From a virus (taxonomy: Duplodnaviria; Heunggongvirae; Uroviricota; Caudoviricetes), in the IMG/VR virus record IMGVR_UViG_646311923_000012: a stretch of 64,000 bases of DNA; one strand, given 5' to 3'. Below, piece by piece: positions 54,001 through 57,000 of the stretch. A program made the position numbers. Positions within the stretch are counted from its first letter, which is position 1; the number at the start of each line of letters is the position of its first letter.

Positions 54001-57000
54001 GTCGGCGGGTAAGGCAAAACAAACTCTATACGCATCAGTAACCTCTTTTACCCGAGCACGCCGGTTGCAAAGGCGTGATCAAGAAAACGAAAAATTAAAT
54101 CAACCTGGGAACCATGCTTTTCTTCGAACGCCAGCGGATCCGCATGAAGCTCGTTGTGATGCTCCCGACACAGCGGTAGCGTGAAAATATCGTGGGATTT
54201 TGTTCCCATTCCGCCCTGACCATGACCAATCAGATGATGAGGATCGTCCGCTGGCTTACCACAACACGCACACGGCAGTGTCTTTACCCAGCGTGTGTAT
54301 TTCTCATTTACCCAGCGGCGACGTTTAGGTCGTTTCATGAAGGATTCCGGAGACTCCGGATCAACGGCAATGCTGACCACCGTCTTTTCCTGTGGTGGGT
54401 TCTGTTGCTGGTGGGTGTGAGGCGGTAGCGCAATATTTTTTGTGCGCTGCTTCAGTATGCTGGTGGCGGTCTGTTCTCCCGGTATGATGTCGCTTTCACG
54501 GTATACGGAGCGGATTTTTTCCGCCGGTAATCCCAGAGAGCGACGCGATACTGCCTCAGGTAATGCGTCCACCACCTGATTGCAGACTGCCCACCAGGAT
54601 AATTCAGCCAGCGATAATTCCCGCTCCTGCGTGCCATTCATTACATGGCGTATGACGTCAATCATCCAGGCTGTCAGATTTTGTTGAGTAAGTTGCTCAA
54701 GTGATTCGGAGGTCTGGTCGCGCAGCTGGTTGTCGCAGTGCCAGCACAACACCATTGCGCCAGCACCGTAACTGTGAATAACGGTTTCGCTGTGATGATA
54801 ATCGCCGTGTGGCCACTGGCAGGATTTCACGTGACGTAATAACCAGTCAGACAGTGCACCAGCGCCGCCAGCTGCACGAATCACCCGCTCATCGCTGAAA
54901 AATGGCAGCAGTGATTTATCTTCCGCCAGCGGCTGGCGAACAGCAGGAACCGCTCCAGATGGCAGCGCCCGCATGTTTTTCGGTTCCGGCTCCACCAGCA
55001 CCCTGCCGCGATGAAAAACTGGCAATGATTCACGACCGGGCTTAAGGACCACCAGCCCGAGTTCCGGAACCAGAACAGGTCGAAGTAATACCCGCACATT
55101 ACCTCCAGACGCGCTGACGGTAGCAGGCATGTGTCCGTGGCAGATGTGCACGAACAGGAAGATATACAGAAACGGTCCAGGTCAGACGATCAGCGTTCAG
55201 ACTCCGCTCCACACGGACACCGCGACGCAGATACGCCTCTTGAAGCATATCTGCCTCATCGATCGTACAGAACAGATAGTGAAACCAGCCATACTGAGGC
55301 GCACGAAAACGCCTCCCCTGCTTAATTTCCGGGTCGGCTTCAGAATTGTGGGATTTTATGTGTTGTGTCATCGGATTCTCCGGTGACAGCAGGTGTCAGT
55401 TGTTCAGGCTGACTGCGCGAATTGTAAGGCAATACGCCGGAATGTACAAACAGAAAACCCGTCAGTAAGACGGGCTTAACAAGCAGGGGCGGTTACTTTA
55501 ATAATTTCAGTGCCTTTACATCAACTTCAACACTGCTCAGGTCTTTATCAATTTCACCCTCAATTCTTACTTTGTCTTTCGGAGAAACATTCTGCCCGGC
55601 CCATACGCTGTCATCAATATCCGTGACAATTGTCCCGCTATTGTCACGAAACTCATAACGTTCATCACCCACTTTTTTAACGATGCTCCCTTCAAGGATA
55701 ACCCATGCATCATCCTTCAGTTCTTTTGCCTGCGCTACTGTTGAACGCTCTGCTTCTGGCCCCTGGAAACCACCCTGCTGTGCAAAAGCGCCAAAAGACA
55801 CACCGGAAATAAGTGCTGCAATCAATACCTTTTTCATTCATAGTCCTCTTTCAGAGATGAACATTCAAACAGCATTTTCAGTATGGTAAAGCGCGGGTGC
55901 GTTGAGGATGCCTGACACATCAGAGGTGGCGGGAGATTACTCCCCCGCCTGGTCTCTTACTTCTCAGATTCGTAGTCTACGAAGACAGCGACCTCCGTCT
56001 GACCGGTTCGGATTCGCACCTCGCAGAGGTCTTTCCTCGTTACCAGTGCCGTCACTATGACGGTTAAACAGATGACGATCAGGGCGATTAACATCGCCTT
56101 TTGCTGCTTCATAGCCTGCTTCTCCTTGCCTTTCGGCACGTAAGAGGCTAACCTACATGTGTTCAGCATGGATTGAGCCTCAGATTAATGTTAAGCGTCT
56201 TGCAGGACGCGTAATGTTAACTGGGGCTTTTCTCTATCTGCCGTTGGTGTTCATGCCCGAGGCAGATAGCCTCAAGCACCCGCTGCAATTCTACTTAACT
56301 ATCCTTTTCCCGCAAACCGTTTTTATCCCCAGCGGCAAATCGAATACACCACCAGCGCCACCGCCATCGCAATTCCTACCGTTGTGAATGCTTCAGGCCA
56401 GGTCATTGATTCACCTCCTGCGGCGGTTCTGGTAGCGACATCCAGTGGGTTGCTTGCCTAAGATCATTACCCGGACTAACTGCTATACCTCCGCGCCGGA
56501 ACGTGCCTCCGAGATAGCGTGCGGAATATATTAATGGCCCAGCCTCGCTATCGATATTCATCGAAATAAGCACGTTCTGGCTCTTTTCAGGCATTCGCTC
56601 AGTACAGCTTATCCAGCCATCCAGAGTTATCGGAGATCTGGTTGACGTTTCCGAGATTTCCCGAAAATTGTTGGTTGACGAATTCTTATTTTCCCGAAAG
56701 TTTCCGGCCTGAAGCATGGCGACGCGGCAGGCGTTCCAGCCATCAGCATATGTTTTAGTTACACCGTCGAGATGGCAGGTAAGCAAATCCATTTCATCAG
56801 GCACTACCATTGCTATCGGCTCTGCTTCCAGTGATGCCAGCGCGATACGAAACACATTAGCCAGCAGGCTGTCTGAAGACTTGTTATCGTGCGCCGAGTC
56901 GCTCAGGAAGCCTGTGATGTATGATTTAATCTCCGCGCGTTCTCTGGTAATAGTGCTCATATCAGTTTTCCTTATACGGATTAATTTTATTGTGCAGTGC

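Follow-up and report, generated by a model that had tools for sequence, protein, structure and literature searches.

A probably intact hokW/mokW/sokW toxin-antitoxin locus beside ygiW in a variable interval of a lambdoid prophage without stx genes

We analysed a 64,000-nt stretch of DNA from the Caudoviricetes (IMG/VR record IMGVR_UViG_646311923_000012; the whole stretch is hereafter called the window) that carries sequence of two prophages, A and B. Prophage B holds a copy of the hokW/mokW/sokW locus of Shiga toxin (Stx) phages beside a ygiW-like gene, and its sequence makes it very likely (probability about 0.9) that this copy is an intact type I toxin-antitoxin system. The module (55446-56322) lies in what resembles the nin region of a lambdoid prophage that is not an Stx phage. 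The module itself is already known: annotation of hokW, mokW, sokW and their ygiW neighbour dates from 1999, in the Stx2 phage 933W, and the toxin-antitoxin system was tested experimentally in 2021 (PMC8621323). An earlier, sequence-only reading of the window had placed a Hok/Gef-family peptide and a YgiW/YdeI-type protein at 55493-56170, and both are there, far beyond what chance would give.

Results

The hokW coding sequence (55957-56112, minus strand; 51 amino acids plus stop; RefSeq protein WP_000813258.1) matches the Pfam family HOK_GEF (PF01848) at E=1.1e-22 and 79.8 bits, with a cut-off of 22. Its product does not differ from that of 933W hokW (100% identity) and shares 92% identity with HokD of Escherichia coli K-12. 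The 70-codon open reading frame (ORF) of mokW (55957-56169, minus strand) holds hokW in the same frame and is also annotated as a coding sequence in the 933W record AF125520, which bears out the in-frame, mok-like leader of the sequence-only reading. The antisense RNA, SokW, covers the mokW start codon (ATG, 56169-56167) together with the Shine-Dalgarno sequence ahead of it (GAGG, 56181-56178).

That reading had also expected a sok-type antisense RNA, which it could not delimit, and had proposed that the region be searched for one. We located sokW at 56161-56231 on the plus strand (71 nt), using the coordinates of the sokW misc_RNA of AF125520, which aligned base for base; the 71-nt complementarity is given in PMC8621323. 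SokW is predicted to fold in the classical Sok manner (-30 kcal/mol, z=-5.0), leaving 14 nt at the 5' end single-stranded ahead of a long hairpin and a U-tail. As read from the sequence, the sokW promoter (56126-56154, plus strand) consists of a -35 box TTGCCT (56126-56131), a 17-nt spacer and a -10 box TAACCT (56149-56154), with the -35 box overlapping the hok Shine-Dalgarno sequence on the opposite strand. The TAACCT box is the one replaced, with primers YO-421 and YO-422, in the "pro-less" construct of Takada et al., a mutation that unleashed toxicity (PMC8621323).

The Rfam family sok (RF01794) matches 56107-56281 on the minus strand over the full length of the model (1-157; E=4.8e-25, 113.5 bits against a gathering score of 59). 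This match lies on the hok mRNA strand and spans the leader, which begins at the 5' end of the mRNA and runs up to the AUG of hok. It was therefore ruled out as a guide to the strand or extent of the antisense RNA, and since RF01794 models the hok mRNA leader, automated annotation from it would put "sok" on the wrong strand.

The hokW mRNA is placed at 55888-56283 (minus strand, ~395 nt). Its 5' end probably falls at ~56281-56283, the Rfam model beginning at 56281, and its 3' end at ~55885-55888, homology among 42 hok modules stopping at 55885. A putative hokW promoter was read from the sequence at 56288-56316 (minus strand; -35 TTTGCG, 56316-56311; 17-nt spacer; -10 TAGAAT, 56293-56288), in a position that agrees with the 5' end given by both Rfam and the alignment. 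At the mRNA 5' end lies the tac element GGGUGCUUGAGG (56270-56281, minus strand), and near the 3' end its partner in the full-length mRNA, the fbi element CCUCAACGCACCC (55895-55907, minus strand). In the minimum-free-energy fold of the full-length mRNA (z=-7.5) the first 12-14 nt, the tac element, are paired to fbi, giving twelve end-to-end pairs. When the last ~38 nt are removed, the 5' end is predicted to refold as a local hairpin. The sequence-only reading had considered that the Hok ORF might be an inactive remnant lacking the fold-back elements and an antisense RNA; the tac/fbi pairing and SokW are both present.

Comparison with 42 distinct related hok loci separated what is fixed from what varies. 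The consensus tac/fbi pairs (columns 3-14 with 381-393) are kept in 41-42 of the 42, and four pairs with compensatory changes all lie in leader hairpins. Hypervariability is confined to 56153-56176 (alignment columns 109-132), that is, the SokW 5' tail and the mok start, where column entropy is ~0.7-0.8 versus at most 0.1 in the hok coding sequence. Within this hypervariable stretch the mok ATG is the same in all 42. The hok mRNA and Sok are encoded by the same DNA, so that one mutation alters both partners, and specificity can therefore drift freely. This pattern suggests diversified antisense specificity between co-resident hok loci. Individual genomes contain a median of 2 hok-like places and up to 10, while the exact SokW-type tail, found in 609 genomes, is present at a median of 1 place and never at more than 4. 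These counts fit mostly orthogonal hok copies, with occasional identical pairs that would cross-protect.

The hok region aligned at 99% identity with hokW/mokW/sokW of 933W. Only 4 of ~436 nt (55885-56320) differ from prophage Sp5 of the Sakai strain. Of these, 55949 falls past the stop codon and 56204 within the loop of a hairpin; the other two belong to the putative hok promoter, 56284 lying between its -10 box and +1 and 56301 in its spacer. Hok and Mok codons, the SokW tail, promoter hexamers and tac/fbi contain none of the four. The Sp5 locus has been studied experimentally (PMC8621323). Its HokW arrests growth, and sokW expressed from its own promoter prevents the arrest; mutation of the sokW promoter restores toxicity, sokW in trans partly rescues, and protection partly needs RNase III and Hfq. 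After mitomycin C treatment SokW vanishes and HokW is then found in the inner membrane in a RecA-dependent manner, and deletion of hokW-sokW from Sp5 halves phage release (PMC8621323).

Downstream of hokW lies the ygiW-like gene (55493-55837, minus strand), named by PGAP as RefSeq WP_000756596.1, which encodes a 114-aa protein of the periplasmic BOF/OB-fold stress-tolerance family. Residues 19-111 match Pfam BOF (E=1.9e-33), and the protein also matches NCBIfam NirD/YgiW/YdeI NF033674 (E=3.2e-40; 136.8 bits, cut-off 35), TIGR00156 (112.3 bits, cut-off 108.15) and PDB entry 1NNX, "Protein ygiW" (E=3.5e-29). Its N-terminus, MKKVLIAALISGVSFGAFA followed by QQ, reads as a Sec signal peptide, in agreement with the signal-peptide-bearing OB-fold protein proposed earlier. 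A terminator scan placed an intrinsic terminator 3' of the gene (55455-55477, minus strand; AAGCCCGTCTTACTGACGGGTTT and then a T-rich tail), the sole element that the generic sigma-70/terminator scan located around the module.

A 975-nt stretch comprising the module (55446-56420) matches Stx phages at 97% identity in megablast, with the homology beginning at 55446 (query position 47), just past the ygiW terminator. Both this boundary and the terminator beside it are consistent with a self-contained cargo cassette. The same block of terminator, ygiW, hokW/sokW and a 27-aa ORF is found in 933W (locus L001, 2501-3475) and in Sp5 (L085, 1501-2475). There it forms the far right end of the phage map, beside a giant ORF with an LPD5 domain, with DUF551 and ead/Ea22-type genes upstream. 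Thus the hokW-ygiW block is not tied to one slot and acts like a mobile cassette of small size. Exactly at the left border of the module and upstream of the phrog_1212 gene described below is a promoter-like site, TGTACA-16-TACAAT (55421-55448, minus strand).

Over the 421-nt hok region, five IMG/VR loci match the window at 100% identity, and 506 E. coli records match a 1,021-nt hok-ygiW stretch at 99% identity or more. Of 5,426 complete E. coli genomes, 548 contain 80% or more of the hokW-ygiW stretch, and the parDE version described below is present in 327. The best matches to the whole region are O103:H2, O45:H2 and related strains, which are non-O157 enterohaemorrhagic E. coli, and not the O157 background that the sequence-only reading had assumed.

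We delimited the interval occupied by the module by comparing the two prophages. In the direction of transcription, the minus-strand order in prophage B is the DUF551 gene (56403-56960, profile match), the 27-aa ORF, the hok locus, ygiW, its terminator, a 90-aa gene and the ydfU-like DUF968 gene (54048-55151; 85% identical to K-12 YdfU). Prophages A (90-5779) and B (49452-55116) are 87.5% identical and then diverge up to an 85-bp block without a single mismatch between them (6856-6940 and 56322-56406), which corresponds exactly to the 27-aa ORF. This unannotated hydrophobic ORF (56323-56406 in B and 6857-6940 in A, both minus strand) forms the right border of the slot. In every variant its start overlaps the stop of whichever gene precedes it (ATGA), with GGAGG ahead. 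It is kept in about 20 variants, several with synonymous changes only, and occurs in 88 phage records. On these sequence features it looks like a real gene for a small membrane protein that also marks a recombination border.

The left border is formed by the 90-aa phrog_1212 gene upstream of the DUF968 gene (55099-55371, minus strand) and its 108-aa counterpart in prophage A (5762-6088, minus strand), which is 33-36% identical to the prophage B copy. The sequence-only reading had named this flank ydfU/rem-like. The first half of that name stands; the supposed rem-like gene, however, is phrog_1212. As a Rem homologue the 90-aa gene was rejected (12% identity in a forced alignment, and no tblastn match to Rem in the window), and the prophage A gene likewise showed no likeness to K-12 Rem.

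Between the same flanks prophage A carries parDE, on the strand opposite to the border genes: parD at 6107-6427 (plus strand, probable ATG at 6170; PF03693 31.6 bits against a cut-off of 21, E=2.3e-7; TIGR02606 52.8 against 46.2) and parE at 6433-6732 (plus strand; PF05016 40.4 bits against 23, E=4.5e-10), with PGAP names in agreement for both. A hok remnant in prophage A was sought by blastn, and the hok locus itself gave the only match within the window. We considered the published paaR2-paaA2-parE2 system as an identity for this parDE pair and rejected it, as the published system lies in the immunity region and not in the slot. The K-12 Qin prophage has the gene order ydfU-rem-hokD-relE-relB. 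Together with the matching flanks of prophage A, this agrees with the earlier proposal that one slot holds hok in B, parDE in A and hokD-relBE in Qin.

To describe what else the slot can hold, we mapped reference proteins onto 80 IMG/VR loci, those ranking highest by DUF968 similarity out of at least 600. These are the closest relatives and include redundant isolates, and the counts are accordingly not population frequencies. Hok was found in 61 of the 80 loci, 15 of which also have ygiW and 9 a true rem; where ygiW is lacking, hok is directly followed by the phrog_1212 gene, rem or a lipoprotein gene. ParDE occupies 8 of the 80 and a Fic/Doc pair 3. A further pattern, shared by 6 of the 80, corresponds to a C5 DNA methylase with an NgoMIV-type restriction enzyme in the locus checked, and in these restriction-modification loci nothing of the hok module remains beyond the first ~124 nt of its promoter and leader. 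Other cargo beside hok comprises a RelE-family toxin with a helix-turn-helix antitoxin, AbiH, an Hp3-like candidate defence pair and a lipoprotein.

The methylase/NgoMIV-type loci are L023 and L030, also L025, L026, L057 and L066, with the genes ~2.4 kb upstream of the DUF968 gene; the restriction gene of L030 is split into two ORFs. The Hp3-like pair lies in L074 at -3240 to -1490 from the DUF968 gene, just upstream of hok, and consists of a 365-aa and a ~220-aa gene, neither of which matches any Pfam family; the ~220-aa gene does match Hp3, a candidate defence component in PADLOC (E=3.8e-11), and the two may be an uncharacterised defence pair. Hok, YgiW and the phrog_1212 protein are not represented among the PADLOC models.

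The partial hok remnants in the restriction-modification loci and in Qin make hok/sok look like the older resident. It appears to be the usual and probably older occupant of the slot, over which other cassettes have recombined. The notion of an exchangeable slot is thus supported by the varied cargo, with a wider content than the toxins originally proposed (restriction-modification, AbiH, lipoprotein, rem). Two further refinements are that hok/sok is by far the commonest occupant and that the same module lies elsewhere in 933W and Sp5.

Several further features of the window and its relatives were recorded. A prophage of E2865 that is homologous to B carries, beside its immunity region (L002, 12093-12956), a pair made up of relB and a RelE/ParE gene, with a small gene upstream. 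This arrangement resembles paaR2-paaA2-parE2 and would be a second toxin-antitoxin site in such prophages. Rfam found two STnc100 small RNA copies, one per prophage (1294-1466 and 50618-50790), DicF in prophage A (16226-16277) and tRNA clusters downstream of each Q region (2239-2487 and 51563-51812).

Discussion

Every element of the hokW/mokW/sokW locus is present in prophage B and is nearly identical to the tested Sp5 locus, and we therefore regard it as an intact system rather than a remnant. Some observations weigh against this. Covariation in the tac/fbi helix was sought over the 42 loci and none was found, since the columns never vary; the helix thus has conservation only. The generic sigma-70/terminator scan picked up neither the hok nor the sok promoter because their hexamers are weak matches; their positions accordingly come from the homologous 933W annotation and from the primers used for mutagenesis in PMC8621323. 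A scan of 55838-55956 found no sigma-70-like promoter for ygiW. Finally, an IS3-family insertion adjoins the immunity region of prophage B, and there are no stx genes; on these grounds prophage B may be defective or not inducible, and the phage-release role found for Sp5 may not apply here. The ALIL frameshift pseudoknot detected by Rfam at 63603-63719 belongs to this IS3-family element.

The sequence elements and RNA folds were established in this analysis. By analogy with hok/sok of plasmid R1, and in line with what has been demonstrated in part for hokW/sokW, they would operate as follows. A stable hokW mRNA of ~395 nt would be made constitutively and held inert by pairing of the 5' tac with the 3' fbi element. 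Slow trimming of the 3' end would remove fbi, upon which the 5' end would refold as a local hairpin and expose the mok translation start. The short-lived, 71-nt SokW, transcribed from its own promoter on the opposite strand, would pair over the mok Shine-Dalgarno sequence and ATG, blocking translation of mok and hence the presumably coupled translation of hok, and marking the duplex for RNase III. When SokW synthesis stops, through loss of the prophage, induction or a general shut-off of transcription, HokW would be made, enter the inner membrane and depolarise or kill the cell. What has been demonstrated at the near-identical Sp5 locus is toxicity, the antitoxin activity of SokW, its partial need for RNase III and Hfq, and the localisation of HokW to the membrane (PMC8621323); 3' trimming, the coupling of mok and hok translation and expression in this particular prophage are inferred.

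In prophage B the system could be functional in a role other than the phage release seen in Sp5, namely stabilisation of the prophage by post-segregational killing upon its excision or deletion, or abortive infection directed at superinfecting phages that shut off transcription in the host. We consider this close to an even bet. R1 hok/sok stabilises plasmids and lowers T4 plating (summarised in PMC8621323), the slot relatives hold parDE, Fic/Doc, a RelE-family pair, restriction-modification and AbiH, all addiction or defence functions, and prophage B, with the IS3 insertion at its immunity region, may not be inducible. However, in the lone experiment on hokW-sokW the deletion was without effect on growth in uninduced cells, and the locus had a positive effect on phage release (PMC8621323). 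Release, addiction and defence are, moreover, not mutually exclusive.

With regard to the slot, we tentatively propose, as a possibility that falls somewhat short of even odds, a dedicated lambdoid cargo hotspot in which hok/sok is ancestral and has been overwritten by parDE, relBE, Fic/Doc, restriction-modification, AbiH or the Hp3-like pair. Variation of the Sok tail would prevent cross-reaction between hok copies, and identical SokW copies would cross-protect. If so, the two to four identical SokW-type copies in a genome, for example those of prophage B and an Stx phage, would protect against one another's toxin and blunt both prophage addiction and HokW-assisted release of Stx phages.

Lambdoid phages are known to carry accessory genes in their nin region, and the shared position of hok/sok and parDE could reflect ordinary lambdoid mosaicism instead of a dedicated toxin or defence slot. 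In favour of this are the non-toxin cargo there (ygiW, rem, lipoprotein and QueH-like genes) and the bias of a sample made up of the 80 closest DUF968 relatives out of at least 600. Nonetheless, every surveyed locus with enough upstream sequence has at least one addiction or defence module, except L047 (cargo not identified), and the 85-bp block at the right border is sharply conserved, with unrelated neighbours on its two sides, the pattern of described prophage defence hotspots. We therefore consider mosaicism alone unlikely, although it retains a real share of the probability.

We treated ygiW as a separate, independent cargo gene with its own terminator, because it is absent from most hok-bearing loci, although it may be co-transcribed with hok. 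That ygiW and hokW instead form one functional unit, for instance with the periplasmic OB-fold protein buffering damage by Hok, whose C-terminus faces the periplasm, appears improbable. The pair does travel as a single 975-bp block in two different phage contexts, and as no separate ygiW promoter was found in 55838-55956, read-through from the hokW promoter is conceivable. Yet only 15 of the 61 hok-bearing survey loci have ygiW, and hokW-sokW cloned without it worked as a toxin-antitoxin pair (PMC8621323). A genome-wide association study also found ygiW_2 and a mokC-like gene statistically interdependent (PMC11950266), but physical linkage alone accounts for this.

Many chromosomal hok loci were reportedly found inactivated, by Pedersen and Gerdes in 1999. 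That the window locus is likewise an inactive remnant that has lost antisense control, as in most K-12 chromosomal hok loci or in Qin hokD, which is without tac, mok start and sok, is very improbable: RefSeq annotates neither mok nor sok here, but the ORFs are intact, all elements are present and near-identical to the tested locus, and the 100% identity among five IMG/VR loci (421 nt) and the 506 E. coli records at 99% or more (1,021 nt) fit maintenance by selection.

The intact hokW/mokW/sokW system has little value as a discovery, both proteins already carrying RefSeq names. RefSeq leaves out sokW, mokW and the 27-aa ORF, so that users of the genome find just a "Hok/Gef family protein" by itself. 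What interest is left attaches to the bounded cargo interval, in which new toxin-antitoxin or defence cargo of lambdoid prophages can be sought, and to the pattern of variation inside the hok module. The genes also bear on clinical association data. An Irish case-control genome-wide study of Shiga toxin-producing E. coli associated ygiW_2, a mokC-like group, ydfU_1 and a Q-antiterminator gene (ybcQ_1) with haemolytic uraemic syndrome and reported statistical dependency between ygiW_2 and the mokC-like group (PMC11950266). These genes are physically adjacent on Stx-type phage backbones, which makes linkage to stx2a phages the simplest explanation. They are probably passengers or linkage markers of stx2a-type phages, and not independent virulence factors.

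Comparison with known systems

The closest relative of the window module is hokW-mokW-sokW of 933W (AF125520) and Sp5, which has the same HokW, MokW, SokW 5' tail, pair of promoters and tac/fbi as the window, together with its ygiW neighbour, terminator and 27-aa ORF. The ygiW genes differ by about 8 nt. Unlike in 933W and Sp5, the window module lies between the DUF551 gene and the phrog_1212, ydfU, rusA and Q genes, in a prophage without stx.

The locus resembles hok/sok of plasmid R1 in the mok frame over the toxin ORF, the antisense RNA over the mok start, the pairing of the mRNA 5' and 3' ends and the link to RNase III. It differs in that Hok is only 44% identical (PMC8621323), mok is in frame with hok, and the locus is borne by a prophage and not by a plasmid. 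SokW is, moreover, reported to be partly Hfq-dependent.

Qin hokD of K-12 (relF, downstream of relBE) encodes a toxin 92% identical to that of the window from the same position upstream of the ydfU gene, and its coding sequence and 3' fbi region have 94% DNA identity to the window. Qin hokD shares only 56126-55885 with the window and is without the leader (tac, mok start and sok). Its flanks hold relBE and rem, whereas the window has no homologue of either.

The window YgiW-like protein has the signal peptide and single BOF OB-fold domain of E. coli YgiW (1NNX) and YdeI. Unlike E. coli YgiW it is shorter (114 aa), phage-borne and away from qseBC, with a function that is predicted only; unlike YdeI, it scores 64.8 bits, below the YdeI equivalog cut-off of 179.

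At the level of the slot, the arrangement is reminiscent of the defence hotspots of P2-like phages and P4-like satellites, which are described by Rousset et al. 2022 (PMC9122126) and which are likewise fixed intervals with variable toxin-antitoxin and anti-phage cargo. Compared with the hotspots covered there, the present interval belongs to another phage family, is bordered by the 27-aa ORF and the phrog_1212 gene, and is dominated by a hok/sok module that has been partly overwritten.

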